A stretch of 64,000 bases of DNA, from NCBI GenBank assembly GCA_041946865.1, contig JBHGBF010000028.1, forward strand, positions 4,257-68,256, in the 5' to 3' direction. A program made the position numbers and the translations under genes. The stretch's first letter is position 1. The number at the start of each line of letters is the position of its first letter. This stretch comes from Acidobacteriota bacterium. GTDB taxonomy: Bacteria > Acidobacteriota > UBA6911 > RPQK01. The notes below the pieces were generated by a model. It saw only the letters and a program-made list of their open reading frames with translations, was not told the origin of the DNA and searched no databases. Below, one piece after another: positions 20,698-51,516 of this stretch.

Positions 20698-20913
20698 GGG
20701 CGAGGCCCGAAAGAGCCGCGCCGGAGTTACCTTAGTCCGAATTTGCCCCTGGAGATACTCGTCACACGGAGTCGAGCCGCCGGACTCCAGCGTGGTTCTG
20801 TGTACCGGCCCTTCGCGAAAAGCTCGTGATGGTCCCCCCGTTTGAGGTGCACCCGAAGACATGCCAGAATGGAGCAAAGCTTCCCAAGCTCTCAACTTCC
20901 CCAGGAGAGATTC

Positions 20914-22989
20914 ATGGGTTACAGGAGTTCATATCGTACCCTCTCGCTCGCCGTCCTCTCGGTTCTTCTCGTCGGGTTCTCCACAGAGGCCATCAAACAG
21001 TTGAATCGTCCAAGCTTCTCGAAGGTCGACTTTCTGACTCGCGAGCAGGTGGCCTTTGTCCGCCCCGGCCTCCAGTTGACCGTGCAGGACGTGTCTGTCA
21101 ACAACCGGACCGTTGCGGTGGTTTACCGAATCACTGACCCTCAGAGTTTGCCGCTTGATCGGCTGGGCGTCTTCACGCCCGGCGCCGTCAGCACCAACTT
21201 CGTTCTGGCCTATCTGCCACCCGAGCCGGCAGGAGTCCCCGACTATCAAGCCCTGACGCTTCGGCAGGTGACAAGTCCCCTGACCAACGTCACGACCCAG
21301 CAGCCGGGCACAGACCAGGGAGGGACGACCGAGGAGATAGAGCGGGGCACGTACCGGTACACCTTCAGGACCCAGCTTCCGGCGGAATTAGATCCGAGCG
21401 GCACTTATTCCGTCGGCATTTATGCGACCCGGGATCTGGCGGAATTTGATCTCGGTCCGTTTCACGCCAACCTGGTGGTGAACTTCAACCCGGCCAGCGG
21501 ACAGCCGCAGACAGTTCACGATGTCGTGAGCAACGCCGCCTGCCGTCAATGCCATGATCCTTCCATCCCCGACGCGGCGGTGGAAGCTCACGGTGGCGCC
21601 AGGCAGAAGATTGAGTTGTGCGTCCTCTGTCATACCCCGCAGCTGTTGGACCCGGACACCGGCCAGCCCCTCGACATGAAGATCATGACTCACAAGATCC
21701 ACATGGGAGAGCAGCTGCCTAGCGTGCAGGCGGGGCGGCCGTACCAGATCATCGGCTTTCAGCAGCGGACCATCGACTTTTCGCACGTGGTTTTCCCGCA
21801 GAGCATCATGAATTGCCAGACCTGCCACGGCGCCGGCCAAGAGGCGAACGAGCCGGGCGCTCCGGTGCAGCAGGAGGCGTTCCTGCTGCAGCCCGGCATG
21901 GAGGCTTGCGGGTCCTGCCACGACGACGTCAACTTCGCGACAGGCGAGAGCCATCACGGCATCCAGGTCACGTCAAATGCCCAGTGCCAGACCTGCCATC
22001 AGCCTTTTGGAGAGCACGAATTCGACGCTTCGATTCAGGGGGCGCACACTGTGGTGGCCGCATCCCAGCAACTCGAGGGGATCAACATCCAGATTCTGGA
22101 CGTAACCAGTTCCGGTCCCGGACAGAACCCATCGGTCCTGTTCAGCATGAAAAACCGTGCCGGCCAGGTGATTACTCCGAGCACGCTCAGTTTCTTCAAC
22201 CTGCTGATCGCCGGCCCCACGACCGACTACACCACGCTTATCAGCGAACCGGCTGCGACCGACTCAGTCGCCGCCGGCGAGAACTTCCGGTACACCTTCA
22301 AGGCGCCGATACCCGCCAATGCAGCCGGAACGTTCGCCGTGGGCGCCGAGGCCTATCGGAACCTCATGATCGACACGGGCGAACCGGAGTTGGCGCAGGT
22401 TCGCGAGACGGCTGAAAACCCTGTCAAGTATTTCGCGGTGACCGGCGAGGTTCAGCCAAGGCGAGTGGTCGTGACTGATGAACTGTGCGAATCCTGTCAT
22501 GAAAACCTGGCAATACACGGCGGGATCCGCCATAACGCCACCGAGTACTGCCAGTTCTGCCACAATCCGACGGCCACTGACGCTTCCCAGCGCCCGGCCG
22601 AACAGAATCCGCCGCAATCCATCGACCTGAAATTCCTGGTTCACAGGATCCACCGCGGAGAGCAACTGACCCGCGATTTCACAGTTTTCGGATTTGGTCG
22701 CCGGCCGATTAGCTTCAATGAGGTTCTCTTTCCGGGCGATCTGAGACTGTGCGCCAGTTGCCACGTGGACCAGACCTATCAGGTGCCGTCGATGGGCGTG
22801 GTGGCGACAACCGCGCCCAGGGAGTTTTACAGTCCGATTCCTCCCAACTCCTCGGCCTGCCTGGGCTGTCACGACACTCTGGACGCGGCCGCTCACACTT
22901 TCGTCAACACTTCGCAGTTCGGAGAATCGTGCGGCGCCTGCCACGGCCCGCAAGGGGAATTTGCAGTGGATAAGGAACACGCGCGGTAG
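20914..22989 (+). CDS. Decahaem c-type cytochrome, OmcA/MtrC-like four-domain architecture, secreted
   Basis: There are ten CXXCH motifs arranged 5+5 (CRQCH, CVLCH, CQTCH, CGSCH, CQTCH, then CESCH, CQFCH, CASCH, CLGCH, CGACH). Each pentahaem block is preceded by a haem-free domain of ~150-200 aa. The N-terminal signal peptide 'MGYRSSYRTLSLAVLSVLLVGFS' has no lipobox cysteine. AGGAGAG lies 5 nt upstream of the ATG. Confidence 0.7.
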   Translation: MGYRSSYRTLSLAVLSVLLVGFSTEAIKQLNRPSFSKVDFLTREQVAFVRPGLQLTVQDVSVNNRTVAVVYRITDPQSLPLDRLGVFTPGAVSTNFVLAYLPPEPAGVPDYQALTLRQVTSPLTNVTTQQPGTDQGGTTEEIERGTYRYTFRTQLPAELDPSGTYSVGIYATRDLAEFDLGPFHANLVVNFNPASGQPQTVHDVVSNAACRQCHDPSIPDAAVEAHGGARQKIELCVLCHTPQLLDPDTGQPLDMKIMTHKIHMGEQLPSVQAGRPYQIIGFQQRTIDFSHVVFPQSIMNCQTCHGAGQEANEPGAPVQQEAFLLQPGMEACGSCHDDVNFATGESHHGIQVTSNAQCQTCHQPFGEHEFDASIQGAHTVVAASQQLEGINIQILDVTSSGPGQNPSVLFSMKNRAGQVITPSTLSFFNLLIAGPTTDYTTLISEPAATDSVAAGENFRYTFKAPIPANAAGTFAVGAEAYRNLMIDTGEPELAQVRETAENPVKYFAVTGEVQPRRVVVTDELCESCHENLAIHGGIRHNATEYCQFCHNPTATDASQRPAEQNPPQSIDLKFLVHRIHRGEQLTRDFTVFGFGRRPISFNEVLFPGDLRLCASCHVDQTYQVPSMGVVATTAPREFYSPIPPNSSACLGCHDTLDAAAHTFVNTSQFGESCGACHGPQGEFAVDKEHAR

Positions 22990-26234: not shown

Positions 26235-27385
26235 GCGATTTCGCCTTCGTTACTGTTTTCCCTCTCCAGCTCCACAGCCTGCCGAATCCAGCCTCCACCC
26301 AGAACCCGGTCGGCGTCGTAAAAAACCGCCGCCTGACCAGGTGTCACAGCCATCTGCGGCGAATCAAACAGCACCCTGACATGGTCTTTTCTGACCTCGA
26401 GGGTGGCCTCAGCTTCGGGATGTCGAGCCCGGATCTTCACCGAAGCCCGCACGGGGCTGGGCGGCGCCGTTCCGGCAATCCAGCTCACCCGCTCGGCAAT
26501 CAGGCCCCGGCTGTAGACATCCTCCTTGTAGCCGACGATGACGGCGTTCCGGCCGAGATCCAGGCACAGCACATACAAAGGCCGCGGGTGACCGATACCC
26601 AGGCCCTTTCGCTGCCCGACTGTGAAGCGGTGGATGCCGGAGTGCCGTCCCAGCACGCTTCCGTCCTTCGTGAGTATGGGCCCCGGCCGGGCCGCGGCCT
26701 GCGCCTGTCGCCCCAGATCCACGTCGACCTCTGCCGCGTGACGCTGGATAAAGCCGGCGTAATCGCGATCCGGCACAAAGCAGATTTCCTGGCTTTCATG
26801 CTTAAAGGCCGTCTCCAGTCCCTGTTCGCGCGCCAGTTGGCGGACCTGGGGCTTCTTCAAATCGCCGACCGGGAACAGAGTCCGGGCCAGCTGTTGCTGT
26901 GTCAGCTCAAACAGGTAATAGGACTGATCTTTCGCCGGGTCCTTGCCCTTCAGGAGCTGGTAGCCGTTGCTTCCCGAGCGCTCGATGCGCGCGTAGTGGC
27001 CGGTCGCAACACACTCGATCCCGACTTGCCTGGCGAAATTCATCAACTTGTCGAACTTCAGGAAGCTGTTACAGAGTATACAGGGCGACGGGGTCTTGCC
27101 AGCCAGGTAATTGCCCATGAAGGGCTGAATGACGCGCTTTTGAAACTCTTCCTGGAGGTTGAGGACATAGAACGGAAATCCCAGGCGTTCGGCCACCCGG
27201 CGAGCATCGTAGACATCGTCAGTCGAGCAGCAGCTCCCGACCACGTGGGAGCCCTCGCGGACCGGGTTACGCCGGTAATCCCAGAGCTGCATGCTGCAGC
27301 CCACCACCTCATGGCCCTGAAGCTTCAGAATCAAAGCGGCCGTCGAACTGTCGACACCTCCGCTCATCGCGACAAGTACACGCAT
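26231..27385 (-). CDS. mnmA: tRNA 2-thiouridine(34) synthase
   Basis: The PP-loop 'VLVAMSGGVDSSTAA' and the conserved catalytic cysteines are present. The protein is 384 aa. Confidence 0.9.
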   Translation of the reverse strand: MRVLVAMSGGVDSSTAALILKLQGHEVVGCSMQLWDYRRNPVREGSHVVGSCCSTDDVYDARRVAERLGFPFYVLNLQEEFQKRVIQPFMGNYLAGKTPSPCILCNSFLKFDKLMNFARQVGIECVATGHYARIERSGSNGYQLLKGKDPAKDQSYYLFELTQQQLARTLFPVGDLKKPQVRQLAREQGLETAFKHESQEICFVPDRDYAGFIQRHAAEVDVDLGRQAQAAARPGPILTKDGSVLGRHSGIHRFTVGQRKGLGIGHPRPLYVLCLDLGRNAVIVGYKEDVYSRGLIAERVSWIAGTAPPSPVRASVKIRARHPEAEATLEVRKDHVRVLFDSPQMAVTPGQAAVFYDADRVLGGGWIRQAVELERENSNEGEIA

Positions 27386-27508
27386 AACACCGACCAGCTA
27401 TCCAACTGCAAGACTGACCTGGGCGCCTGCGGGCCGAAGGAAATGGGATCCAAGGCTCATACGACGATTTCAAGTCAGTCCGGTCAGTCGGTCAGTGGGC
27501 CAGTCGCT

Positions 27509-28360
27509 TTACCTCCACAAAATCGAACGTGAGACGATCTCGATTTGAGAATACGCGAGCGGAACCAGGTAGGGTTCAATCTGGCTCGCTTGGGCTTCGT
27601 AATCGGTCAGGACTTCGTTGTAGCGGTTCAAGAACTCACGGCAAAGCGCATCAAATCTCGTCTTTCCGTCCACGCCCATACCCTCGGCCAGAGGGCTGGG
27701 GGGAAAGGCGGAGATGGGCTGGTTCGCATCCAGCAGCATCCGGCTCATTTGCTCGCGCAGTGCATTGAACGTATCCTGAATTCGGATCGTGCGGCGCGCT
27801 CGCCAGCTCTCCGTCGGTTCCTCCCGCTCGGCCTGGCTGATCAGGCGCCTTTCCAGCTCGACAAAGCGGTGATAGAAGAGCTCTCGTACTTTCCGGAGGT
27901 CCTTTTCGCGCCGGTCGCGACACTCCTCCCGGCACCGATTGATGAAATCCGCCTGGCTTTCCCCACAATGGGAAAAAATCCCAAGAGTAAGGCTCTTCCA
28001 GGCGCGCGGCCGATAGTACCGGGTTAAGTACCGAATCACTTTCTGGTCCGCCAGCTCCGGCCAGCCTAATACGGTGGTGACCGGAGTCTCCACCAGCTCG
28101 GCCGGATCCAGCCATTTGACCATGTCTGCCGTCCACTCCAAATCAAGATCGTCTATCCAAGGGGCTTCGGCAAACAGACCCCAGTCGGAATAACGATAGC
28201 CCGAGCGCATATCCTGAAGATCGATCTTGAGCTCGAACAGAAGCGAAGGCACTGCCAGGGAATCACTGCTTCTAAACCGATAATGCTTCACCGCCCAGCT
28301 CCTCGTCGTTTCTGGAGGGGTCAAATTATAGCAAACCGGTGACGTTTTTGGACGGTCCAC
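27509..28360 (-). CDS. Hypothetical protein (no recognisable domain)
   Basis: The 283-aa ORF has codon usage consistent with its neighbours. It is the first gene of the minus-strand hyp-mnmA-lpxB-M1-like operon and is divergent from the ECF sigma gene. Confidence 0.5.
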   Translation of the reverse strand: MDRPKTSPVCYNLTPPETTRSWAVKHYRFRSSDSLAVPSLLFELKIDLQDMRSGYRYSDWGLFAEAPWIDDLDLEWTADMVKWLDPAELVETPVTTVLGWPELADQKVIRYLTRYYRPRAWKSLTLGIFSHCGESQADFINRCREECRDRREKDLRKVRELFYHRFVELERRLISQAEREEPTESWRARRTIRIQDTFNALREQMSRMLLDANQPISAFPPSPLAEGMGVDGKTRFDALCREFLNRYNEVLTDYEAQASQIEPYLVPLAYSQIEIVSRSILWR

Positions 28361-28378
28361 TCAATTGTCATACACCGC

Positions 28379-28395
28379 TGTCAAATCCTTTGACA
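28379..28395. promoter_or_regulatory. Dyad palindrome TGTCAAA-TCC-TTTGACA (candidate enhancer/operator), site 1
   Basis: This perfect 7-3-7 inverted repeat lies about 134 bp upstream of the sigma-54 -24 element. Confidence 0.4.
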
Positions 28396-28448
28396 CCTGG
28401 CTAAGACCTTGCTGCCGCTGGCGTTTCAGCCTGATCATCTCGGGCATG

Positions 28449-28465
28449 TGTCAAGCTGTTTGACA
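28449..28465. promoter_or_regulatory. Dyad palindrome TGTCAAG-CTG-TTTGACA, site 2
   Basis: This 7-3-7 inverted repeat has one mismatch. It lies 70 bp from site 1 and about 64 bp upstream of the sigma-54 -24 element. Confidence 0.4.
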
Positions 28466-28519
28466 CCGGCCCACCTCCGGCCCGGGCCGCAAACCCACCG
28501 CCGGCGGGGTTCTTCGCTT

Positions 28520-28535
28520 TGGCACGCGCTTTGCT
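28520..28535 (+). promoter_or_regulatory. Sigma-54 (RpoN) promoter TGGCAC-N5-TTGCT upstream of the ECF sigma gene
   Basis: The sequence is an exact match to the -24/-12 consensus (TGGCACGcgctTTGCT). The GGAGG ribosome-binding site and ATG at 28564 follow about 30 nt downstream. Confidence 0.55.
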
Positions 28536-28563
28536 AAGAGGAAAGGTGTACACGGAGGCGAGC

Positions 28564-29133
28564 ATGGGAACTTACATTGCGAGCGTTTCGCCCTTTGAAG
28601 CAGACCTGATGACCCGAATACAGGCCCGGGAAGACGGGGCCTTCACCGAGTTGTTCGAGCGCTTTGAGAACAAGATCTATCGCACCGCCCTGCGGATGTT
28701 GAAAGAAGAGCAGTCGGCCTATGACGCCCTGCAAGAGACGTTTTTGAACGTGTACCGTGCAGCCCGGTATTTCCGTGGCGACTCCAAGGTCGGCACCTGG
28801 ATCAACAGGATCGCGATTAACGTCTGCCTGGAGATGATCAGGAAGAACCGGCGGCACGAGAACCGGACGGACGAGGACATTTCCGAGAACCTGAGTTTAC
28901 CGGACGAGAGCTCAAAGAGCCCGTTACAGACAATCGAGCAGGCGGAGATTCGTGCCCGGGTCCGAAGGGGACTGTCACGCCTCGGCCGGAAGCACCGGAT
29001 CGTCGTGCGCATGCATGACCTGGAAGGCTTCACCATCCGTGAGATTGCCGAGCGCCTCGGCGTCGCCGAGGGCACCATCAAGTCTCGCCTGTTTTACGGG
29101 CGCGAAGAGCTCAAAAGATACCTCAGCAACTGA
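28564..29133 (+). CDS. RNA polymerase sigma-70 family ECF sigma factor
   Basis: Region 2 ('FTELFERFENKIYRTALRMLKEE...TFLNVYRAARYF') and region 4 ('TIREIAERLGVAEGTIKSRLFYGREEL') are both present. I chose the Met 'MGTYIAS', which has a GGAGG ribosome-binding site, over the ORF-track TTG at 28519 because that start would overlap the sigma-54 promoter. Confidence 0.85.
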   Translation: MGTYIASVSPFEADLMTRIQAREDGAFTELFERFENKIYRTALRMLKEEQSAYDALQETFLNVYRAARYFRGDSKVGTWINRIAINVCLEMIRKNRRHENRTDEDISENLSLPDESSKSPLQTIEQAEIRARVRRGLSRLGRKHRIVVRMHDLEGFTIREIAERLGVAEGTIKSRLFYGREELKRYLSN

Positions 29134-30467
29134 GAGGGCCGGGAAGGGGCAATGTCGTCCAGAATGAGCCTCTTCTCGAATTCCGCTACCTTTTCTTTCA
29201 ATCCCCCGGCGTTGGTCCCGCCGGTGCTGGACGCGAGCCGCACGCGTTCGGAAACCATAGACGGGGGAATCGGCTGATCGGGTTCGCACAAAATGACCAT
29301 GCGCTCGACCTCGTTTTCCAGCTCCCGAACGTTGCCCGGCCAGTCGAAGGCTCGCAGCAGCGCCAGGGTTTGCGGTTCAAACGACGGGACGGGCTTGTTC
29401 AATCGCCGCCGGCATCGATCCAGGAAGTAATGGCACAGGGCCACGATGTCGTCCCGCCGGGTGCGTAGCGGGGGGACAAACACTGCAAAGACGTTGAGGC
29501 GGAAAAAGAGATCCTGGCGGAACCGCCCCGCTTCAACCTCGCGGCTCAGCACCCGATTGGTTGACGCAATAATCCGCACGTCGACTTTCCGGGGCGCCTG
29601 GGCGCCTACGGGCAGGATCTCGGCATCCTGCAGCACGCGGAGAAGCTTCACCTGCAAGTCGAGCGGCGCTTCGCCGATCTCGTCCAGGTACAGGGTTCCC
29701 TGGTGCGCCAGCTCAAAATGACCCTTGCGATTCTCGATCGCGCCCGTGAAAGAGCCTTTCTTGTGGCCGAAAAAAGCGCTCTCGATCAGCTCTGACGGTA
29801 TGGCGCCGCAGTTGACGGCAATGAAGGGCTGGTCGGCCCTGGGGCTGTGATCGTGGATGTAGCGGGCCAGCAGTTCCTTCCCGGTTCCGGTCTCGCCCTG
29901 AATCAGAACCGTTGAATTAGTAGGGACGACGCGATCAATCAGGCGCATCAACTCCCGCATCTCCTGGCTCTCGAAAACCAGCTGCTTGCCCACCGGCTCG
30001 AGCGACTCGATCTCCTGGCGCAGCCGGAGGTTCTCTCTTTCAAGCTTCTCATTCGCCCGCCTTAACTCCTCGCTTAGCCGCTCGTTCTCCTTGCGCAGCT
30101 GCCATCGCTCGATTTCCTGTCGCAGGGCCTCCTTGAGAGCGACCGGTTCCCAGGGCTTGGTGATGTAGCGCTGCACCTGGCCCTGATTGATTGCGTCCAT
30201 GAGGTATTCGACGTCGGTGTAACCCGTGAGGATGATCCGTATGGTATCGGGCCGGACTTCCCGCGCCTGCCGCAGCAGGTTCACCCCGCTCATGCCCGGC
30301 ATTCTCTGATCGGTGATGATTGCGACGATCGGCCGCTCCTTGAGGATAAGCAGCGCTTCGTCCCCTGTCTTCGCCTCTTTGACGGTGTAGTCGGTCAGAA
30401 ACGTGCGTTTCAGTTTCTGCAGGTTCGCCGGTTCGTCATCGACGATCAGGATTTCGTGTTTGCTCAT
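29094..30467 (-). CDS. Sigma-54-dependent response regulator (NtrC family) apparently lacking a C-terminal HTH
   Basis: The protein has a receiver domain (the phospho-acceptor Asp lies in 'AIITDQRMPG'), an AAA+ sigma-54 activator domain ('GETGTGKE', 'GAFTGA'-like 'GSFTGA', 'ESAFFGH') and a short C-terminus without a Fis-type HTH. Its 3' end overlaps the ECF sigma 3' end by 40 nt, and the two genes are convergent. Confidence 0.85.
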   Translation of the reverse strand: MSKHEILIVDDEPANLQKLKRTFLTDYTVKEAKTGDEALLILKERPIVAIITDQRMPGMSGVNLLRQAREVRPDTIRIILTGYTDVEYLMDAINQGQVQRYITKPWEPVALKEALRQEIERWQLRKENERLSEELRRANEKLERENLRLRQEIESLEPVGKQLVFESQEMRELMRLIDRVVPTNSTVLIQGETGTGKELLARYIHDHSPRADQPFIAVNCGAIPSELIESAFFGHKKGSFTGAIENRKGHFELAHQGTLYLDEIGEAPLDLQVKLLRVLQDAEILPVGAQAPRKVDVRIIASTNRVLSREVEAGRFRQDLFFRLNVFAVFVPPLRTRRDDIVALCHYFLDRCRRRLNKPVPSFEPQTLALLRAFDWPGNVRELENEVERMVILCEPDQPIPPSMVSERVRLASSTGGTNAGGLKEKVAEFEKRLILDDIAPSRPSQLLRYLLSSSRP

Positions 30468-32593
30468 GCCGGTTTGACTGGTAGCTGGACTCGAAAAACG
30501 GTTCCCTCACCCTTCTGGCTCTGGGCCTCAATGGATCCGTGGTGTTGCTGGATGATTCCGTAACTGATGCTCAACCCGAGGCCGGTTCCCTGGCCGGCCG
30601 GCTTGGTCGTGAAGAAGGGCTCGAAGATCCGGCTCAGATCCTGCTTGTCGATCCCTACGCCGTTGTCTTCCACCTCGACGACGACTTTGCCGTTTCGGCA
30701 GCTGCTCCGGATCCAGATGTCCCCTTCCGCGACAATGGCCTGGCAGGCATTGCTGAGGAGATTGAGGAACACCTGGCTCATCTTGCCCGGATGGCATTCG
30801 ACCTGCGGAACCTGCCCGAACTCCTTGTGAATCCGGATGCGGTCGCGATACTCGTTGTGAAGGAGATTGAGGGCAAGATTGATCGGCTCGTGGATGTCCA
30901 CTGCCCGAAACTCCTCGCGTTCCAGCCGGGAGAAGGTCTTCAGATCGCTGATAATCGAGTGGATTCGCCCCGCGCCTTCCTCGAAATTCTTGACCAGCGT
31001 CTCGAGGTCCTCCAGCATGAACTCGTAGTTCATCTGTTCCTTGAGCCGTTGGATTTCTTCGGCGCCTGCCGGATTCAGACTGGCTTTGCTTTCGTATAAC
31101 GCAATCAGATGTTTCAGGTTGTGGATGTACTGCTTGAGGAAATCCGTGTTCCCGTAAATGAAGTTCAGCGGGTTCTTGATCTCATGGGCGATGCCGGACA
31201 CGAGTTGCCCGAGAGACGCCATTTTTTCGCTCTGGATCAGCTGGACCTGCGTTTCCTTCAGCTCCTCATAAGCTTTCTGGACCTCGCGGTTGCTTTTCTC
31301 GAGCTCTTGGGTGCGCTCGCGGACTTTTTCCTCGAGCCTCTTGTTCAAATCGATCAACGCCTGGCTCCGGTCTTCGAGCGAACGGGCCATCCGATTGAAA
31401 GTCTTGGCCAACTCGCCGATCTCGTCACTGCCGCTCACCACGACCCGCTGGCTGTAGTCTCCTCCCGCTATCACGCTCGCTCCTTGGGTCAGTCTCTTGA
31501 CAGGGATGGTGATACCGCGGGCGACCGAGTAAGTCAGGATAATGACCAGCAGGATCGAGACCGAAACCGCCCCAATCACGATGTTCTTCAGTTCCACAAC
31601 CGGGGCAAAAATCTGCTTTTCATCGATACCCACGGCGCAAACCCAGCGAAAGAACTCGTGGTTGACGGGCGCGATGCCGCTAATCCGGGCCACCCCGGCC
31701 GGGTACTCGTATTGGGCATTCTTTCTTCCCTGGAGGATCGCCTTGTGGAGATTCTCGAGGCTCAGCTCCTGGCTGAGCGTCCGGCCGTAGTTATTCTGGT
31801 CTGCAGATAGCTGCACCGGCGTCGAAAGCCCGAAGCGATTGGTCCTGAATCGGTCGCCGATAATGGTGTTGCGGTCTTCGGCCAGGAGAAAGGCATACCC
31901 GGAACTCAGCGACTGCTGCTCGAGGTCTTCCTCCACTTTGTCCAGAATTTCCTGGATGAACTCCCAGTTCATCAAACCGAGAACGCCGCCGATAACCTCG
32001 CCTTTTTCACTCAACACCGGCGCCGCGAAGCCAATCGAGTACTGCCGGGCCAGATCCTCGTTCTGATAGCCGTACATCTCCTCGACGAGCCGGGACTTGT
32101 GCCATTGAATGTATCCGAACCTCCCGCTCTGCACCTGCTTGAGCCAGTCGGAGCCCGGGGTAAAAGACAGGAGATTCTGCCCTTTGATCTGGTCGGCTCG
32201 GTCGGCATCGAGATGAATCCCGACTCGGTTGCGATCGGCCGTGTTCGATACCAGGATGTTCCCGTTCCGGTCAAACAGGACCAGCAGATCGTAGACTTCG
32301 TGAATTTCGACAAGGAAGTCGAGAAGCTGCTTCGGGTCTGGGCTTCGGTCGCCGCTCAGGTAGTCCCGGAAGTCACGATACAGGCTGGTGGAGATCATCT
32401 CCTCGGTCTTCTCGAGGAGAGTCAACTGAATGGTGTCGCTAATGTCACGGGCAATCTGTTCCAGAAAGAGCGCAATCCGATCCTCGGTGATCCGGTTCTT
32501 GGCTTGAAAGTAGGAGAAAACGGAAACGCCAATCAACGGAACCAGGCACAAAGGCAGAATCAGAAGAAGCAGTTTGTATTTCAGACTCTGCAT
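30464..32593 (-). CDS. Sensor histidine kinase (Cache-like periplasmic domain, HAMP, HisKA, HATPase_c)
   Basis: The 709-aa protein has an N-terminal TM segment, a large periplasmic domain, a second TM segment, HAMP, an H-box 'GIAHEIKNPLNFI', and N/G boxes in the C-terminus. Confidence 0.85.
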   Translation of the reverse strand: MQSLKYKLLLLILPLCLVPLIGVSVFSYFQAKNRITEDRIALFLEQIARDISDTIQLTLLEKTEEMISTSLYRDFRDYLSGDRSPDPKQLLDFLVEIHEVYDLLVLFDRNGNILVSNTADRNRVGIHLDADRADQIKGQNLLSFTPGSDWLKQVQSGRFGYIQWHKSRLVEEMYGYQNEDLARQYSIGFAAPVLSEKGEVIGGVLGLMNWEFIQEILDKVEEDLEQQSLSSGYAFLLAEDRNTIIGDRFRTNRFGLSTPVQLSADQNNYGRTLSQELSLENLHKAILQGRKNAQYEYPAGVARISGIAPVNHEFFRWVCAVGIDEKQIFAPVVELKNIVIGAVSVSILLVIILTYSVARGITIPVKRLTQGASVIAGGDYSQRVVVSGSDEIGELAKTFNRMARSLEDRSQALIDLNKRLEEKVRERTQELEKSNREVQKAYEELKETQVQLIQSEKMASLGQLVSGIAHEIKNPLNFIYGNTDFLKQYIHNLKHLIALYESKASLNPAGAEEIQRLKEQMNYEFMLEDLETLVKNFEEGAGRIHSIISDLKTFSRLEREEFRAVDIHEPINLALNLLHNEYRDRIRIHKEFGQVPQVECHPGKMSQVFLNLLSNACQAIVAEGDIWIRSSCRNGKVVVEVEDNGVGIDKQDLSRIFEPFFTTKPAGQGTGLGLSISYGIIQQHHGSIEAQSQKGEGTVFRVQLPVKPA

Positions 32594-32814
32594 GCCCGGA
32601 CCCTGGAGTCAAGACTCTTAACAGCGAACTGACAAGGGATCTTACACCCGCGGCCACGTCCGAGACAACCAGTGCCTCGACCCCTTGATCCGGTGGATAT
32701 AAAACAAGGGGCCATATTCTGGCGTTATCGAATTGCAGACCGGAAGCGTCTTTACTGCCCGTTTCCAAATCGCTTACCCCTCTGATTCGGCACGGTTTCC
32801 GGGTGTCGTCCGGG

Positions 32815-43575: not shown

Positions 43576-45210
43576 TCAGCTGGCTTGCTCCGCTACCTTG
43601 ATCAGCTGCCTGGCGGGAACGTTTCGCAAGGTTTGTTTACGGCCGGACGGCCAGACAACCTCCACTTCGTCGGCGTGGCTTCTGGGTCCAAGACCGAAAG
43701 TCAGTCGAAGCTGGGATTGGCTGCAATAGCTGGCGCCACTCTTCACCGTCTGAACCTGGCGCAGCGGCCCGGCCTTGACTCGGACCACCGCGCCGACCCC
43801 ATCGCGGTTGCTCGGGCTTCCTTTCAGTTCAAAGGCGACCCAGTTATTCCGGCTGCCGCCCTCGTTACGGAAAAGGGCCGCGGGGCCTCCAGACGTTGTG
43901 ATCAGGACGTCCAGGTCCCCGTCATTGTCGATGTCGCCATAGGCGGCGCCCCGGCCTACTCGAGGCGCGCTGAAATCCTTGCCCATGAGGTCGGTTACAT
44001 GCGCAAACCGGCCCCGGCCTTTGTTCTCAAACAGGTGGGGCGGCTGCGCATAGGTCACCCGCTTCTGGACGCGGTTGATATCGTTCTCGACGTGGCCGTT
44101 GGCGACATATATATCCGGCCGCCCGTCGAGGTTGTAGTCGAAAAAGAAACATCCAAACGCAAGCGTGAGGAGACTTGCGGGACCGAGGGCCGAACGAGGC
44201 GCCTCGTCAATAAAAAACCCGGTGCCCTCGTTATGGTAAAGAGCCAGCATCTGGTTGGAGAAGTTGCCGATTACGACGCTCAGATGGCCTGAGCCGTCAT
44301 AGTCGGCAGCATCGATTCCCATCGCGCCGCGCGCCACTCCGTCCTCGCTGAACGCCACCCCCGCCATCACTCCGACCTCGGCGAAGGTCCCGTCGTGCTT
44401 GTTTTCCCACAGTTTGTTCGGCTGGGTGTCGTTGGCCTGGAGGACGTCGGGCCACCCGTCCCAGTTGTAATCAAAGACCAGAACTCCGAGCCCCTTGTTT
44501 GTCTCGTCAAAGAGCTTCGCCTCCTTGGTCACATCCTTGAAGCGTCCACGGCCGAGGTTTTTGTAGAGTCGAGGTGACACACCCGGGTACGATTCGGGCG
44601 TGCAATAGGACTTGGATTCACCGTCCAAGGTGCAGAAAAGGTCGCTTTCGCGACCCCACTTCACGTAATTGGCCACAAACAGGTCGAGCTGCCCGTCGCG
44701 GTTGTAATCCAGCCAGGCTGCGCTGCTGCCGAAGTCCGGATTCCCCAAACCCGCCGCCCGGGTCACGTCATGAAAAACACCGTTGCCCTGGTTCTGAAAC
44801 AGGCGATCAGCCCCGAGAGCGGTCACGTAGATATCCTGATCACCGTCGTTGTCGTAATCGGCGATGGCACATCCCATCCCATACATCTCGACGGCAAGAC
44901 CCGCCGGTCTGGTCACGTCAGTGAAAGTTCCGTTCTTGTTGTTCCGATAAAGACTGGAATAGCTGATTTTCTTCTTCCGTTCCGGCCAGTCGCTCCCGTT
45001 CACCAGGAAGATGTCGAGCCAGCCGTCGTTGTTGTAGTCGAGGAAGGCACAGCCGGCGCCCATCGTCTCGGGCAGGTACTTCTTTCCGTAAGCTCCGTTA
45101 TTGTGAACGAAATTAATGCCTGCCTGGCGGGTTACGTTGGTAAAACGCACCTGCGCGGCGACCGGGACCAGGAAGCCCGTCAGCAGCCAAATCCAGAGAA
45201 GTCGCTTCAT
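43576..45210 (-). CDS. CRTAC1 family protein (FG-GAP/VCBS repeats + ASPIC/UnbV C-terminal domain), secreted
   Basis: The signal peptide 'MKRLLWIWLLTGFLVPVAAQ' is followed by repeated 'DYNNDGWLD / DYDNDGDQD / DYNRDGQLD' calcium-binding FG-GAP loops, and the C-terminal 'WPSGRKQTL' region is ASPIC-like. Confidence 0.8.
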   Translation of the reverse strand: MKRLLWIWLLTGFLVPVAAQVRFTNVTRQAGINFVHNNGAYGKKYLPETMGAGCAFLDYNNDGWLDIFLVNGSDWPERKKKISYSSLYRNNKNGTFTDVTRPAGLAVEMYGMGCAIADYDNDGDQDIYVTALGADRLFQNQGNGVFHDVTRAAGLGNPDFGSSAAWLDYNRDGQLDLFVANYVKWGRESDLFCTLDGESKSYCTPESYPGVSPRLYKNLGRGRFKDVTKEAKLFDETNKGLGVLVFDYNWDGWPDVLQANDTQPNKLWENKHDGTFAEVGVMAGVAFSEDGVARGAMGIDAADYDGSGHLSVVIGNFSNQMLALYHNEGTGFFIDEAPRSALGPASLLTLAFGCFFFDYNLDGRPDIYVANGHVENDINRVQKRVTYAQPPHLFENKGRGRFAHVTDLMGKDFSAPRVGRGAAYGDIDNDGDLDVLITTSGGPAALFRNEGGSRNNWVAFELKGSPSNRDGVGAVVRVKAGPLRQVQTVKSGASYCSQSQLRLTFGLGPRSHADEVEVVWPSGRKQTLRNVPARQLIKVAEQAS

Positions 45211-48028
45211 AGTTTTTCAGTCGTGAGACATCCGCGAGCGTTTCCAGCCGTACGCTCGAATGCTCGTGAATGGCCTGTCGCTCATTGTTGTTTTCGGGAT
45301 GCGCCAGTCGATGCGGTCCGGTGATGGCCTGCGAGCTTTCATCGGCCTTGAACCGCAGGTACAGCTTCTGTTCGCGCTCCGCCAGCGCCCGGTTGCCCAT
45401 TCCCCGATAAGCCAGCATCAGGTTGTAATGAGCCTGCAGGTCCTCGGGATCGATCCGCAAAACACGATTCAGCACTTCCACCGCTTCCTTGAACTGGCGC
45501 TTCAAGAACAGGATCCGGCCGATCTGGTTCAATACCATGCGGTCCTGGGGGTACTTCGACTCCGCTTTCCACAGATGTTCCAGGGCTTTTTCATAATTCC
45601 CCTGCGTCTTGTACGTCATGCCAAGGAAGAAATGGGTTTTGGCCAGTTCGGGATCAAGCCTGAGTGCATCCAGCAGGACTTCCTGGGCCTCCTGGGTCCG
45701 GCCTTCCTGAGCACGGACGCGGCCGATATTCACATAGCCGTCGACATACTTCGGATTGATTTGCACAACCCGTTTGAAAATCTCCTCCGCCGCCTTCAAA
45801 TCGCCCTGCAGTAACAGACCAATCCCATAATCGTTCCAGCGGATCAGGTCTTTCGGGTTGAGCACCGCCTCTTGGTGGGAAACGTCCGTGCCGGCGGGAA
45901 CGACTTTCAGCTGAGCCGTGGTTTCCGCCATGACGACAATGGGGAGATCCGGAATCTCCTTGAGCTTTCCCGAAACCTTGGAAAGGTCCCCGGTGAAGAC
46001 CCATTTCCCATCGTCATATCCGGGAGCGATCGAGACCGCAACCTGGCTCGGATCCCGCACCCCGGCATAGGCCCATTGCGTATTCCACCACGCGAATTTG
46101 CGGTAATTGACCTTGGCTTTGAGCGTGATTGTCCCGCCGGCATCCCCGGGAATCTTGAGTCGATAATGCACGGTGTCGGCGGCCCCAGGCGGGATCAGCC
46201 GCACGTACAAAACCGACCGCGCCATCCAGGCGTTGCGTTTGTTGATGTGATTGCCGTTTGCGTCGAGCAGGAAGGAGCGGTAAAAATGAGCGGAGGGCTC
46301 GACCGGCCCCTTGCGTCCTGACTCGTCTTCGGGCACGTAGCCGCTCCAGAAGATGGTTTTCCCGCGCTCGTCGACCGCCTGCAGCTCCACCCAGACATCG
46401 AATCCGTCGACTGTCCCGCCCGGGAAGAAGTGGCCGACGTTTTTCGTCCTCACGACGACATCCACACGGACGTCATCCCCGGCCTGTACCAGGGGGTTGA
46501 CGCGGTTTACCGGCGCCAGGATCTTTGCCGCTTCCGTATACCCGGCTCCGACGCCGACCGCGAAGCCCATCTGGTCGCCTTCCGCAAATGTGCTGGAGAT
46601 CTGCGGCTCGTCCGCACTTGCCGCCCGGCGCCCGGCAGACTCCTCCCCGACAACTTCCCCCGCCTCGCTGACCGCGAAAATATCCACCCCGACCTGGTCG
46701 CTTTTCAGAAACTTGATCACCGTCTCGAGCTGCTCGTGATCTTTGTTGGCAAAGGGGAGAGCCGTGTTGGCGGCCGGGAAGCGGTGGCTGTGTACGAATC
46801 CATTGAGGTTGCCGGCATCGTTCGAGGCGACCAGCGGCATATGACAATCGGCGCATTTCTTCGACTGTTTCGGGTAGTAGAACGAACGTGCGGAATGCCC
46901 CGAAATCCCGCTGTTCTGCCAGGCGTCATAGTCATTGAAACCCCTGGTCCACCGGTAATTGTTGACCGGAATATCCAGATGCACCTTGTGACAGCTCGAG
47001 CAGTAATCGGGAGTCTGGCTCCGGAAAAACGGCTTCAGGAACGTCCGGCGATGCGGGCCGGGATCGAGCCGGACCACAAAATCGTGGACCCCCTTGATCA
47101 GCCGGTTCTCGCTGGTCGCCAGATCGTGGAGCGGCGGGTATTCAATCACGAAATGCCCGTTACCCATCGTGCTCCCTACCGACACGATCGAGTGGCACGA
47201 CGTACACGTCAAACCGGCCTGCGCCTCGGGCGTGTGGATCTGGTCCTTGATTGGTCGATCCATCATGCCGTTGAAGAAAACCGCATGATCGTGACAGCCG
47301 CCGCACCACTTGGACGGCTTGGTTCCCACCACGTCCTGCATGTATTCGATCGATTTCCGGTACCACTGGTTGTTGAAAGAGGAGAAGTGATGCGCGCTCG
47401 AGGCCCATTGCCTGTAAATGTCGGGGTGACATCCCTTGCTGGCGCACGACTCCGGCTTCATGAAAAACGCCGACGGAATCGTCCGGTTCACGTCGGTATT
47501 GGCCGAAGAGGGGAAAAACGGGCTCTCCGCCCCCGCGCCTTCCTCTTCCATTCGAACCGGAACCGCCGTCGGATTGACGATCTCCCAGCTGGGATTCGGG
47601 TAGTAACGGTACCAGGTCTGAACACCCAGCGGCAGCGCCAGCCCGATAACCAGCGCCGCCACCAGGAGCGCCCGGCTCCGGCCCGAGATGAGACTGGCCA
47701 TCACAAAGAGCACGAATCCGCTGCCGACAACCACGATATGAGCCAGGAGGAGCCAGTAGTATGGACGGGTCGCGCCCGTTATGACCAGCGCTGTGCCGAG
47801 CAGCCCGCCGGCGATCATCAGGATGACCGCCAGCCGGCTTAACCAGGAGGCCTGTCGAAGCGAACCGCGCAAAAAAGCGACCAGGCCCACCAGGACCAGC
47901 GCCCCCAGCCCCAAGTGCAACAGGAGATTCGCGACGTAGAAAAGCGTCGGTGAATCAAAACTGTACAGGTAAGCGCTGTTGATCACCAGCAGAGCCAGGG
48001 CAGCCGACAGCCGACGAGTCATAGGCAT
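45113..48028 (-). CDS. Membrane-anchored multihaem cytochrome c (c554-like haem block) fused to a C-terminal TPR domain
   Basis: The N-terminus has five predicted TM helices. A periplasmic block follows with CGGCH, CTSCH, CSSCH, CADCH and an atypical CASKGCH (CX4CH). The C-terminal ~250 aa are TPR repeats. The start was taken at the Met 'MPMTRRLSAAL' (ORF maximum 48067, TTG). The 3' end overlaps the CRTAC1 start by 98 nt. Confidence 0.75.
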   Translation of the reverse strand: MPMTRRLSAALALLVINSAYLYSFDSPTLFYVANLLLHLGLGALVLVGLVAFLRGSLRQASWLSRLAVILMIAGGLLGTALVITGATRPYYWLLLAHIVVVGSGFVLFVMASLISGRSRALLVAALVIGLALPLGVQTWYRYYPNPSWEIVNPTAVPVRMEEEGAGAESPFFPSSANTDVNRTIPSAFFMKPESCASKGCHPDIYRQWASSAHHFSSFNNQWYRKSIEYMQDVVGTKPSKWCGGCHDHAVFFNGMMDRPIKDQIHTPEAQAGLTCTSCHSIVSVGSTMGNGHFVIEYPPLHDLATSENRLIKGVHDFVVRLDPGPHRRTFLKPFFRSQTPDYCSSCHKVHLDIPVNNYRWTRGFNDYDAWQNSGISGHSARSFYYPKQSKKCADCHMPLVASNDAGNLNGFVHSHRFPAANTALPFANKDHEQLETVIKFLKSDQVGVDIFAVSEAGEVVGEESAGRRAASADEPQISSTFAEGDQMGFAVGVGAGYTEAAKILAPVNRVNPLVQAGDDVRVDVVVRTKNVGHFFPGGTVDGFDVWVELQAVDERGKTIFWSGYVPEDESGRKGPVEPSAHFYRSFLLDANGNHINKRNAWMARSVLYVRLIPPGAADTVHYRLKIPGDAGGTITLKAKVNYRKFAWWNTQWAYAGVRDPSQVAVSIAPGYDDGKWVFTGDLSKVSGKLKEIPDLPIVVMAETTAQLKVVPAGTDVSHQEAVLNPKDLIRWNDYGIGLLLQGDLKAAEEIFKRVVQINPKYVDGYVNIGRVRAQEGRTQEAQEVLLDALRLDPELAKTHFFLGMTYKTQGNYEKALEHLWKAESKYPQDRMVLNQIGRILFLKRQFKEAVEVLNRVLRIDPEDLQAHYNLMLAYRGMGNRALAEREQKLYLRFKADESSQAITGPHRLAHPENNNERQAIHEHSSVRLETLADVSRLKNYEATSLDLAADGLPGPGRRAGAFYQRNPPGRH

Positions 48029-48144
48029 ACTCTTCTCACGATCACCTCGGGATCGCCAACCGGTCAATCATCCATCGTCTTGGCCTGGGATGCCTCAAGA
48101 TAGGGGGCCGCAACGATCGCTCGTGGCGGGATACTTTTTGTAGA

Positions 48145-48160
48145 GCAAACTCCGTGCCGA
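48145..48160 (-). promoter_or_regulatory. Candidate sigma-54 promoter (minus strand CGGCAC-N5-TTGCT) upstream of the cytochrome-TPR/CRTAC1 genes
   Basis: The reverse complement of 48140..48164 reads cacttcGGCACggagtTTGCtctac. The GG and GC dinucleotides are correctly spaced, with one mismatch to TGGCAC. It lies about 100 nt upstream of the cytochrome start. Confidence 0.4.
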
Positions 48161-48371: not shown

Positions 48372-50006
48372 ATGAATGGCCTCCGCGAGCGGCTGAAGAA
48401 GGACACTTCGAGCCTGAAGATTACCGTGGTGCTTTTTGCGGTCCTGCTCGCGATTAACTGCGCGGCGGTCTGGTTCATCCTGGTCTCACGCCGCAATGTT
48501 CAGCAAATCGCGGCCCAGGACTTGCAGCTGCAAACGACTGCCCAGGCGCGCTCGATCGAAGCCTTGCTGGCGAATTTGCGAGGCGAGTTTCTTTTCCTGT
48601 CGCAGTCGGCCCCACAGTCGACGGCCGTAACGGTCCTCTCCGACCCGAACCCGCTCGTGAAGCGCTGGGGCCGGCTGGATGTGGAAGGCATTTTCCTCCG
48701 CTTTCTCCAAGCCCGCCCGGAAGTCTTACGGCTGATCCTGCGTGACGGCGCAGGCAAGCCGCTTATCGTGGCGGGGCGCCGGGAGGGCGCTCCTGTGCTT
48801 CTGCCCCCTGGGGATTTCACCCAGGCGGCGACCAGCGGCGGCAACGTGTGGGCCAGCCAGTGGCCGATTGCGGCGGGCCCGCCGGAAAACGGCATCTTGG
48901 AGACGTTGCTGGACGTCTCGGAGCTGCTTTCCGTCGTGGCGCCGGGCAGCGAGTCCAAGCTGAAAATCGTTCAGGAACGCCGGCCGCTCGTTCGACCGCC
49001 CTCCGACGACTCGCTGGTGGCCTCGGTGCCGATTCGAGACGAACACTGGACCACCCCCATACACTGGACCTTGATTCGGACCGAGAATCAAAGCCAGCTG
49101 GTCTCGTCGGTCGCCAACCTGGCGGCGCATTACCGGGCGACGATTATCCTCAACCTTTTGGTCATAAGCCTGACGCTGGTCCTGGGCGCTCTGGCGTTCC
49201 GGCAGGTTCGACGCTCGGCGATTCTTGAGGCAGAGAATCGGCATCAGGCCAGGGTCCGGGAGCTGGAACGCCAAATGCTCCATACGGAGCGGCTGGCGAG
49301 CGTCGGTCGACTGGCAGCCGGCCTGGCCCATGAGATCAACAATCCGCTGGAGGGCATCGGGAACTATCTGAGCCTCTTGGAGGAAGACCTGAAGGACGGA
49401 CGGGCAGAGGGCTGTCTGGAGCTGACCGCAGGCGTCCGAGAGGGGCTCAATCGTGCGGCGGGGATCACGCGCCAGGTTCTGGCTCTCTCCGACCCGGGCA
49501 GAAGCCCCAAAACGGCAATGAGCATGAACGCCGTGGCCAGGGAGACCTTCGATTTTGTCAGGTCTAATCCGGCTTTTCGGCACGTCCGCATGGAGCTGCG
49601 TGTTCCCGATGATGACCTGATCATTCTCGGGAACGCGATTACCCTGGGCCAGGTCGTCTTGAATCTGATCCTCAACGCCTGTGAGTATCAGGAGCAGGGA
49701 GGCCAGGTCGAGGTGGTGTTGGACCGCGTGGACGCCAAGGCGCGCTTGAGGGTGAGCGATCGGGGGCCTGGCATTCCCGAAGACGCATTACCAAGGATTT
49801 TTGAGCCCTTCTTTTCGACCCGAGGCTCGACGGGACTCGGGCTGTCGCTTTGCCATTCGATCGTGACCGACCATGCCGGGCAGGTGACGGCCGCCAACCG
49901 CGGCGATGGGCAGGGCGCGGTCTTCACGGTGGAAATCCCGCTAAGCGAACCGCGAGCCGCCGACACCGAGCCTGCTGGGGTCAAGGAGAAGGAACTGACA
50001 GGCTGA
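48372..50006 (+). CDS. Sensor histidine kinase (two TM segments, periplasmic sensor, HisKA, HATPase_c)
   Basis: The 544-aa protein has the H-box 'GLAHEINNPLEGI' and G-boxes 'DRGPGIPED' and 'GSTGLGLSL'. A TTGTCA-N18-TATCTT sigma-70-like promoter lies just upstream. Confidence 0.85.
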   Translation: MNGLRERLKKDTSSLKITVVLFAVLLAINCAAVWFILVSRRNVQQIAAQDLQLQTTAQARSIEALLANLRGEFLFLSQSAPQSTAVTVLSDPNPLVKRWGRLDVEGIFLRFLQARPEVLRLILRDGAGKPLIVAGRREGAPVLLPPGDFTQAATSGGNVWASQWPIAAGPPENGILETLLDVSELLSVVAPGSESKLKIVQERRPLVRPPSDDSLVASVPIRDEHWTTPIHWTLIRTENQSQLVSSVANLAAHYRATIILNLLVISLTLVLGALAFRQVRRSAILEAENRHQARVRELERQMLHTERLASVGRLAAGLAHEINNPLEGIGNYLSLLEEDLKDGRAEGCLELTAGVREGLNRAAGITRQVLALSDPGRSPKTAMSMNAVARETFDFVRSNPAFRHVRMELRVPDDDLIILGNAITLGQVVLNLILNACEYQEQGGQVEVVLDRVDAKARLRVSDRGPGIPEDALPRIFEPFFSTRGSTGLGLSLCHSIVTDHAGQVTAANRGDGQGAVFTVEIPLSEPRAADTEPAGVKEKELTG

Positions 50007-50121: not shown

Positions 50122-51516
50122 ATGAGCGCAAGGACGAACACCAAGGGCACGGTCTTGATCGTGGATGACGAAACCTACGTACGGGACTCCCTGGCCACGG
50201 TGATGAGACGCAAAGGGTACATGGTGCGAACTGCACCGGGCGCGGAGCAGCTCATCGCCTCAGGAGCGCTGCAAGGGGTCGACGTGGTCGTCACCGATCT
50301 TCGCATGCCGGGGCAGGACGGGCTTACCTTCCTGCGTTCTCTTGCGGAAACCGAGTCGACGATTCCCGTCATCGTCCTCACGGGCCACGGCACTGTTCCC
50401 TCGGCGGTCGAGTGCATGAAAGCCGGCGCCTTCGATTACCTGCTCAAGCCTTCGACCCCCGACGAGCTGGACCTGGTCATCGACCGGGCGATCAACCAGA
50501 CGACAATGAAACGGGAGCTTGAGTACTTCCGTTCCGCCGACGCCCGGAAGCCTGGACCGTCAGGGCCCGTCGGCGTGAGCGCCGGCTGGAAGCAGGTGTT
50601 ACGGCTGGTTGAAGCGGCGGCGCCGGCGGACACGACGGTGCTTCTCCTCGGCGAGTCGGGAACCGGAAAGGGCGAAGCGGCTCGTCTGGTTCATCAATGC
50701 AGCCGCCGCAACAAGAAGCCGTTCGTTCGTGTGAACTGCGCCGCCATCCCGATCGATCTTTTCGAGAGCGAATTTTTCGGGCACCGGCGGGGATCTTTTA
50801 CGGGGGCGACGGCCGATCGCGAAGGACGTTTTCGAGTCGCGCACCAGGGGACGCTGTTCATGGACGAGATCACCTCCATGCCGGCAGCCGCGCAGGCCAA
50901 GGTGCTCCGGGTGCTGGAGGACGGAGTCTTTGAACGGGTGGGAGACAGCAATCCCACGACCGTCGACGTCCGGCTGGTGGCCGCCTGCAACGTGGACCTG
51001 CAGGCCGAAGTGGATGCCGGACGGTTTCGCCAGGACCTGTTTTACCGCATAAATGTCATGACCATTCATATCCCTCCACTGCGGGAACGCAGGGAGGATA
51101 TCCCGGTCCTGGCCCAGAGTTTTCTCGATGAGTTCCGCGCGAGACTGGCACGGCCTGTGCATTCTTTCGATCCCGAAACCATGAAGATCCTCGAAGCGTA
51201 CCACTGGCCGGGCAACATTCGCGAGTTGCGCAATGTAATCGAGCGCGCCGTTCTTCTGGAGACCGGCCCCGAGCTGATGCCCGATAGCCTGCCCTTCGGG
51301 TTCCAGCAGGAAGGACGTTCCCCGGGTGCGCATCCGCCTGAAGATCTCAACCTTCGAAGTGCCCTGGCGGCCGAGGAGTGCCGGATACTGAAAGCGGCGC
51401 TGGCGCGGTCGAACGGGGTTCGCCGTGAAGCGGCCCGCCTGCTGGGAATTGACGAACGGAATCTCTCCTACTTCCTCAAGAAGCATGGACTGAGCGGAAC
51501 GGGAGGGCGCGCATGA
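50122..51516 (+). CDS. Sigma-54-dependent response regulator (NtrC family) with C-terminal Fis-type HTH
   Basis: The protein has a receiver domain ('VVVTDLRMPG'), AAA+ motifs ('GESGTGKG', 'GSFTGA', 'ESEFFGH') and the HTH 'AARLLGIDERNLSYFLKKHGL'. Confidence 0.9.
   Translation: MSARTNTKGTVLIVDDETYVRDSLATVMRRKGYMVRTAPGAEQLIASGALQGVDVVVTDLRMPGQDGLTFLRSLAETESTIPVIVLTGHGTVPSAVECMKAGAFDYLLKPSTPDELDLVIDRAINQTTMKRELEYFRSADARKPGPSGPVGVSAGWKQVLRLVEAAAPADTTVLLLGESGTGKGEAARLVHQCSRRNKKPFVRVNCAAIPIDLFESEFFGHRRGSFTGATADREGRFRVAHQGTLFMDEITSMPAAAQAKVLRVLEDGVFERVGDSNPTTVDVRLVAACNVDLQAEVDAGRFRQDLFYRINVMTIHIPPLRERREDIPVLAQSFLDEFRARLARPVHSFDPETMKILEAYHWPGNIRELRNVIERAVLLETGPELMPDSLPFGFQQEGRSPGAHPPEDLNLRSALAAEECRILKAALARSNGVRREAARLLGIDERNLSYFLKKHGLSGTGGRA

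Follow-up and report, generated by a model that had tools for sequence, protein, structure and literature searches.

A conserved sigma-54 promoter and paired enhancer-like dyads predicted to control an ECF sigma factor gene in Acidobacteriota

How is an alternative sigma factor controlled when no anti-sigma gene lies beside its own gene? This question is raised by an extracytoplasmic function (ECF) sigma factor gene located in a 64,000-nt stretch of DNA from an Acidobacteriota bacterium (hereafter referred to as the window) and, more particularly, by the interval 28361-28563 immediately upstream of it. The original prediction for this interval proposed an exact match to the RpoN -24/-12 consensus at 28520-28535 and two near-identical dyads, 70 bp apart, at about -64 and -134 from the -24 element. 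The positions of the promoter match and of both dyads were confirmed, and the promoter match proved to be the only exact one in the window. We consider it highly probable, on the basis of sequence comparisons, that the interval is an enhancer-dependent control region of the ECF gene and belongs to a kinase/NtrC-type activator/sigma-54/ECF module conserved in Acidobacteriota. The support for the promoter and the dyads comes decisively from their conservation at orthologous loci, and not from in-window statistics. A genome scan for relatives of the ECF sigma factor identified 30 loci, about 22 of which are Acidobacteriota orthologues (45-90% identity), and extra loci were added by exact-protein look-ups. 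Promoters and dyads were counted over 27 Acidobacteriota loci with an ECF relative, and the control regions of the six closest sequences were aligned (alignment A1). The five closest relatives, with ECF proteins at least 87-90% identical, are those at loci L001, L031, L036, L039 and L041. Candidate promoters were scored at 10 positions against TGGCAC-N5-TTGC, with the distance to the ATG counted from the first T, and chance levels within the window were obtained from 100 shuffles.

The position of the promoter relative to the gene depends on the start codon assigned to the ECF gene. The mechanical list of open reading frames uses a TTG at 28519, which is in frame with an ATG at 28564. The TTG overlaps the -24 element and would place the promoter inside the coding sequence, as noted in the original prediction, which preferred the ATG. 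Nearly all of the 120 best ECF homologues are 187-192 aa long, and the window protein is identical to MFB3902869.1, annotated by NCBI as a 189-aa protein of an Acidobacteriota metagenome-assembled genome. These lengths identify ATG 28564 as the start of the gene and rule out the TTG. The protein contains only the sigma-2 and sigma-4 domains, and its length lies within the range of about 170-220 aa characteristic of the ECF class. Its matches in the PDB are SigH, SigE and SigW. Of the NCBIfam cut-offs, it passes only that of the generic superfamily model TIGR02937 (104.9 bits vs 42.9), and none of the 25 top matches, out of 103 in NCBIfam, was to an HrpL model. No anti-sigma domain was detected in the ECF neighbours with Pfam, NCBIfam or the PDB, so that the co-transcribed anti-sigma gene that is typical of the family, albeit not universal in it, is missing here. 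These neighbours are a gene for a 260-aa protein without family match and a sigma-54 activator gene, as expected from the earlier description of an ECF gene with no adjacent anti-sigma gene. In most Acidobacteriota loci, the 260-aa gene directly follows the ECF gene. We considered its product as a hidden anti-sigma factor, which is unlikely: the protein has no domain, PDB or NCBIfam match, its gene has a conserved TGnTATAAT promoter of its own, and it is absent from two loci (L004 and L006).

The candidate promoter has the GG and GC dinucleotides of sigma-54 promoters exactly 10 bp apart, within TGGCACG-N4-TTGCW, and lies in non-coding DNA shortly upstream of the gene start. The exact TGGCAC-N5-TTGC sequence occurs once in 64 kb, with 0.12 occurrences expected, and 12 of the 100 shuffles reach this count; when one mismatch is allowed, the four matches found in the window are at chance level (4.3 expected). 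The match taken alone is therefore only suggestive. The comparison of orthologues was more informative. The window promoter scores 10/10, and a GG-N10-GC element scoring 9-10/10 was found 39-47 bp from the ATG in about 23 of the 27 Acidobacteriota loci, consistent with the earlier expectation that the promoter would be kept in related genomes. At L016 and L017, the -24/-12 element lies 72-74 bp from the ATG instead. The invariant columns of alignment A1 correspond to the two dyads, TGGCAC...TGC, GGAG and the ATG, with freely diverged flanks and no other conserved block among these six close relatives. The usual geometry of sigma-54 promoters would place the transcription start of the ECF gene at about 28545-28547. 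Alternatively, the sigma-54 match might be a product of chance, with the ECF gene read from a sigma-70-type promoter or an autoregulated ECF promoter and, possibly, translated from the TTG. The 12% of shuffles reaching one exact match would allow such a coincidence, but the motif is kept at a fixed distance from the ATG across ECF identities of 55% to 90%, promoter prediction gave no sigma-70-type candidate ahead of the ECF gene, the homologues are 187-192 aa long, and alignment A1 contains no other conserved block. We therefore regard this explanation as extremely unlikely.

A second sigma-54-like element, CGGCACGGAGTTTGC (one mismatch; 48145-48159, minus strand), is present in the window, 78 nt upstream of a gene for a 984-aa TPR/cytochrome-c554-like protein (45113-48067, minus strand). 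This element diverges from the genes of a second kinase (48372-50006, plus strand) and of an NtrC-type activator with an intact HTH_8 domain (50122-51516, plus strand). Together, they probably form a further enhancer-dependent unit.

The two dyads upstream of the ECF promoter (hereafter referred to as upstream activating sequences, UAS-1 for the distal and UAS-2 for the proximal copy) are both 17 bp long, with a start-to-start distance of 70 bp. The sequence TGTCAA-N5-TTGACA occurs in exactly two copies in the window, both of which are these dyads. With up to two mismatches, seven matches to the pattern were obtained (1.15 expected), a number reached by none of the 100 shuffles. The dyads have the form and placing of UASs (inverted repeats some 80-200 bp ahead of the sigma-54 promoter), and their positions are conserved. 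In about 25 of the 27 loci, the proximal position is occupied by a 17-bp dyad of the [T/C]GTnnA-N5-TnnAC[A/G] family, at -67 to -73 from the first T of TGGCAC; its columns are invariant in alignment A1. The distal dyad is found at -137 to -142 from the same T in about 17 orthologous loci, whereas in others two dyads, at about -152 and -174, take its place. The dyads, too, are kept in orthologues, about 70 and 140 bp ahead of the -24 element, and stand out as islands in alignment A1.

The activators encoded at the orthologous loci have a helix-turn-helix (HTH), the variants of which are correlated with the half-site sequence. A Ser before RQT in the HTH (GI[S/T]RQT) pairs with TGTC.. half-sites (C at position 4 in 31/56), and the Thr-type HTH pairs with [C/T]GT[A/T]AA half-sites (C at position 4 in 5/54). 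This covariation is supportive only, but would tie the dyads to the activator. It also bears on the possibility that the dyads are operators of a different regulator, for example one acting on the divergent 260-aa gene, with an incidental spacing relative to the sigma-54 promoter. In the window, the distal dyad is only about 45 bp from the -10 element of that gene. However, this juxtaposition arises only after an inversion described below: in collinear relatives, the whole ECF gene lies between the two, and the distance to the -24 element is nonetheless kept. Moreover, dyads of this family are also present on the operon that encodes the activator, and their sequence varies with the type of HTH. 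We consider control by a different regulator to be very unlikely, and the dyads are, in our view, best interpreted as enhancer sites for the NtrC-type activator of the conserved module.

The kinase gene is syntenic with the activator and ECF genes in more than 20 loci. The usual order, established with tblastn and found on one strand in these loci, is kinase, activator (HTH_8), dyads and sigma-54 promoter, ECF gene, 260-aa gene, mnmA, lpxB and M1/TPR peptidase gene. The activator orthologues are 465-477 aa long, with an HTH_8 domain and a Fis-type HTH at the end (...LGI(S/T)RQTIIAKLKQY). The best NCBIfam match of the window activator is ntrC, below the equivalog cut-off. Synteny is not strict: L002 and L003 (77-79% ECF identity) have perfectly retained the dyads and the sigma-54 promoter without a kinase or activator gene within 6 kb upstream, indicating that the activator can act in trans and that the genes of the module can be unlinked.

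Dyads of the same family are also found over the promoter of the kinase-activator operon. The degenerate upstream copy, TGTAAGATCCCTTGTCA, overlaps a -10-like element, TGTAAGAT (TGnTAAGAT-type), and the operator dyads are conserved in L001, L031, L004, L007, L025 and L019. This arrangement suggests autorepression, by analogy with NtrC, which represses its own operon via sites over a sigma-70-type promoter. The likeness to NtrB/NtrC at glnAp2 extends to the pairing of a kinase with a REC-AAA+-Fis-HTH regulator and to 17-bp 7-3-7 dyads. The two systems nevertheless differ in the half-site (TGTCAA here vs TGCACC), the spacing of the dyads (70 bp vs about 32 bp), the sensor (a periplasmic dCache domain vs the cytoplasmic NtrB) and the target (a sigma factor gene vs nitrogen-assimilation genes).

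Beyond the observed elements, their geometry and conservation, the gene linkage, the correlation between HTH and half-site, and the rearrangement described below, the following mechanism is modelled on the established behaviour of NtrC-type activators (described in part in PMC7175178). The kinase would sense a periplasmic signal and phosphorylate the REC domain of the activator, dimers of which, bound to the 17-bp dyads (centred some 64 and 134 bp ahead of the -24 GG), would assemble an AAA+ ring. Through DNA looping, the GSFTGA loops of the ring would touch the sigma-54 polymerase closed on TGGCACG-N4-TTGCT, and ATP would drive promoter opening. Transcription would begin near 28546, giving a short leader with GGAGG and translation from ATG 28564. 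With no anti-sigma partner, the ECF sigma factor would be active once made and would redirect core polymerase to its regulon. Binding of the activator to the dyads over the sigma-A-type promoter of its own operon probably also leads to autorepression.

Several observations weigh against this interpretation. There is no RpoN box (rpoN) anywhere in the 64-kb window, the two sigma-54 activators encoded there implying that rpoN lies elsewhere in the genome. The dyads, 70 bp apart, are not separated by a whole number of helical turns, and the correlation between HTH and half-site is confounded by phylogeny. No ECF-type target promoter was found locally, the 260-aa gene and mnmA having only sigma-A-type -10 elements upstream. 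Finally, the cognate activator of the window has no DNA-binding domain, and the enhancer may therefore be non-functional in this genome. With HTH_8 absent, this protein departs from the REC-AAA+-HTH architecture of group 1 bacterial enhancer-binding proteins, and no HTH-bearing activator that could bind the dyads is adjacent to them in the window, in which the sole other activator (that encoded at 50122-51516) shares 39% identity with it and carries another type of HTH. The HTH-containing activators of the window, which the original prediction had put forward for binding assays, thus do not include the right protein for the dyads.

The loss of the HTH is associated with a rearrangement. In blastn comparisons with L036, L039, L040 and L041, window positions 28371-29133 matched in the forward orientation, whereas 27000-28356 and 29137-31000 were reversed; the cassette of dyads, promoter and ECF gene has therefore been inverted in place. 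Deletions accompany the junctions: about 187 nt are missing after the ECF stop, together with about 100 nt of the activator 3' coding sequence and a portion of the spacer that precedes the distal dyad. Homology to the activator ends at 29137, three bases past the ECF stop, at the ...RRHG codons, and a 1-nt insertion near 29157, about 20 nt before the end of homology, already shifts the frame. The resulting protein ends in ...EFEKRLILD followed by 20 unrelated residues, for which the reading frame crosses the ECF 3' end on the opposite strand, and is 457 aa long, vs about 476 aa. The right breakpoint has thus removed the entire HTH, and no HTH-coding remnant was found elsewhere in the 64-kb window. 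The ECF gene and the frameshifted activator tail overlap convergently by 40 nt (29094-29133). No terminator is predicted after the ECF gene on the plus strand, so transcription may run antisense into the activator-kinase operon.

The sequence comes from a metagenome-assembled genome, and the inversion and the HTH-less activator could be artefacts of assembly, the real genome being collinear, with a 476-aa activator and a normal cascade. The five closest relatives are all collinear, with an intact activator, and the junction sequence has no match in public metagenome contigs. In addition, the window ECF protein is recorded from a single NCBI contig, an exact look-up having given no other encoding contigs. 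On the other hand, no inverted repeats flank the cassette that might mislead an assembler, the junctions both carry deletions, the activator stub has a 1-nt insertion, and all the other genes of the region are full length. Furthermore, the same inverted topology was observed in an independent relative from another clade with a complete chromosome, L019 (OZ241897.1; 4957-10369), in which the activator has kept its HTH and dyads are present at -163, -141 and -71. An assembly artefact is therefore unlikely. In a neighbour-joining tree of the REC and AAA+ domains, the window sequence was nested among those of collinear genomes, and L019 branched beside the collinear L007, indicating that the two inversions were independent.

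The module may also be dead in this genome, with enhancer tethering lost, the ECF gene silent, and the dyads and promoter persisting as fossils of a recent rearrangement. Consistent with this possibility, the HTH has been lost and the remaining stub is frameshifted, the terminator region of the ECF gene has gone, and the gene now overlaps the activator gene. Yet both dyads are perfect palindromes, the promoter has the maximum score, and the ECF, REC+AAA+ and kinase sequences are intact. The ratios of nonsynonymous to synonymous substitution (dN/dS) for the window, 0.04 for REC+AAA+, 0.03 for the kinase and 0.05 for the ECF gene, are the same as those between intact relatives and give no signal of relaxed selection on the truncated activator, with the proviso that the branch as a whole has a dS of about 0.9, giving the comparison low power and precluding the dating of the truncation. 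Activators without a DNA-binding domain are also known to work, as illustrated by FlgR and CtcC (PMC7175178). We consider a dead module rather unlikely, although the module might be in the course of decaying. Our best guess is that ECF expression in this genome depends on the untethered REC-AAA+ stump acting from solution, in the manner of FlgR and CtcC, and is probably weaker than in relatives with a tethered activator, although activation by a paralogue encoded outside the window could be an alternative.

In combining REC and AAA+ domains without a DNA-binding domain, the window activator resembles FlgR of Helicobacter and Campylobacter and CtcC of Chlamydia, which belong to group 5 (PMC7175178). 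Unlike FlgR and CtcC, which are ancestrally domain-less and enhancer-free, it has lost its domain recently and secondarily, in one genome, and the dyads remain. The window variant is, in this respect, a natural experiment on the weight of the enhancer-binding domain, with the cis sites intact and the DNA-binding domain lost. A bolder proposal, which we judge quite unlikely, is that the cassette is a recurrently invertible unit, flipped independently in the window and in L019, and that the flip in the window turned a DNA-tethered NtrC-type protein into a REC-AAA+ activator that, like FlgR and CtcC, is functional without an enhancer, with the dyads persisting. If true, this would provide a natural snapshot of the origin of domain-less activators, and the antisense extension of sigma-54-driven ECF transcription into the kinase-activator operon might constitute a rewiring that adds a negative feedback loop.

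Inverted repeats flanking the cassette were sought as a cause of the inversion, and none was convincing in the window, L036, L039 or L019. A 24-nt imperfect repeat in L036 begins at the activator breakpoint, with its partner inside the ECF gene, and does not fit the junctions. The intergenic regions contain hairpin palindromes of tandem heptamers (GACTGAC or CTGCCCG type), the longest of which, in L039, is perfect over 53+33 nt. These palindromes lie on either side of the ECF cassette in collinear relatives, at the places at which the window has junctions and deletions.

The placing of an alternative sigma factor under sigma-54 control has precedents. In Pseudomonas syringae, HrpR/HrpS activate sigma-54-dependent transcription of the gene for HrpL (ECF32), and in Erwinia/Pantoea, HrpX/Y act through HrpS on HrpL (PMC8999054, PMC5263251). 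The original prediction described this layering as uncommon, which it is; given the HrpL precedent, it is not novel. As for HrpL, an ECF sigma factor without anti-sigma factor would be controlled purely by transcription from an enhancer-activated sigma-54 promoter (PMC8999054, PMC5263251). The activators differ, HrpR/S being group 4 proteins with no receiver domain (PMC7175178), whereas that of the acidobacterial module is a REC-containing NtrC-type protein with its own kinase; the phylum also differs and, unlike for HrpL, alignment A1 revealed no sign of negative autoregulation by the ECF sigma factor at the promoter. The CseB/CseC-SigE (ECF39) system of Streptomyces coelicolor is similar in that a two-component system turns on the gene of an anti-sigma-less ECF sigma factor (PMC8999054), but CseB, which is of the OmpR type, works at a sigma-70-type promoter, so that no sigma-54 tier takes part. 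In Borrelia burgdorferi, an NtrC-type regulator, Rrp2, and sigma-54 (RpoN) together drive another alternative sigma factor (PMC1976401); the target there is RpoS, of group 2, rather than an ECF sigma factor, and the enhancer geometry differs. The acidobacterial module is thus a further case of a known cascade logic, distinguished by the joining of a kinase and REC-containing activator to the sigma-54 and ECF tiers, and by the phylum. We found no description of an acidobacterial sigma-54-to-ECF module in the literature covered, which did not include the supplements of the ECF reclassification, in which it might be listed.

The advance is incremental rather than conceptual: control by transcription alone of an ECF sigma factor lacking an anti-sigma partner, for which HrpL is the paradigm, is extended to a further phylum and to an activator governed by phosphorylation. 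Acidobacteriota are abundant in soil and hardly tractable genetically, and a conserved three-tier circuit, which comes with predicted operators, promoter and start codon, offers an entry point into their signal transduction. The features of the locus are listed in Table 1.

Table 1. Positions of the features of the ECF locus and of related palindromic elements (window coordinates unless a relative is named).
Feature	Position	Strand	Details
Conserved 260-aa protein gene	27509-28291	-	Start GTG 28291 (by orthologue comparison); no Pfam, NCBIfam or PDB match
Extended -10 of 260-aa gene, TGCTATAAT	28333 to 28325	-	TGnTATAAT conserved upstream in 18 loci
Left inversion junction	28357-28370	.	260-aa gene promoter (reversed) on left, ECF cassette (forward) on right
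Distal dyad UAS-1, TGTCAAAtccTTTGACA (= TGTCAAATCCTTTGACA)	28379-28395	.	Perfect 7-3-7 palindrome; centre 134 bp upstream of -24 GG
Proximal dyad UAS-2, TGTCAAGctgTTTGACA (= TGTCAAGCTGTTTGACA)	28449-28465	.	Perfect palindrome; centre 64 bp upstream of -24 GG
Predicted sigma-54 promoter, TGGCACGcgctTTGCT (= TGGCACGCGCTTTGCT)	28520-28535	+	TGGCACG-N4-TTGCT; -24 GG 28521-28522, -12 GC 28533-28534
Shine-Dalgarno sequence GGAGG	28554-28558	+	5 nt before ATG 28564; GGAG invariant in alignment A1
ECF (group 4) sigma factor gene, 189 aa	28564-29133	+	Pfam Sigma70_r2, Sigma70_r4_2, Sigma70_ECF
Right inversion junction	29134-29137	.	Directly after ECF stop; forward block ends 29133, reversed begins 29137
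NtrC-family response regulator/sigma-54 activator gene, truncated, 457 aa	29094-30467	-	Pfam REC, Sigma54_activat (GSFTGA), AAA_lid_14; no HTH_8
Sensor histidine kinase gene	30464-32593	-	dCache-HAMP-HisKA-HATPase_c; operon with activator, 4-nt overlap
Putative autoregulatory operator of kinase-activator operon	32607-32646	-	Dyad TGTTAAGAGTCTTGACT 32623 to 32607, and TGTAAGATCCCTTGTCA 32646 to 32630, 23 bp upstream
Palindromic elements, window	27386-27508
Palindromic elements, L036	5630-5758, 3709-3791
Palindromic elements, L039	3621-3804, 4658-4748
Palindromic elements, L001	about 1960-2060

Scans of the window for Rfam families and tRNA genes gave no hits. Beyond the 260-aa gene, mnmA has, in many relatives (L009-L018; the 27386-27388 region in the window), a TATAAT sequence just 6-7 nt ahead of the start codon, an arrangement suggestive of leaderless mnmA transcripts in these relatives. 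Elsewhere in the window, a gene at 20842-22989 (plus strand) encodes a 715-aa multihaem cytochrome with MtrC/MtrF-like domains II/IV and cytochrome c7 motifs, hinting at a capacity for extracellular electron transfer.

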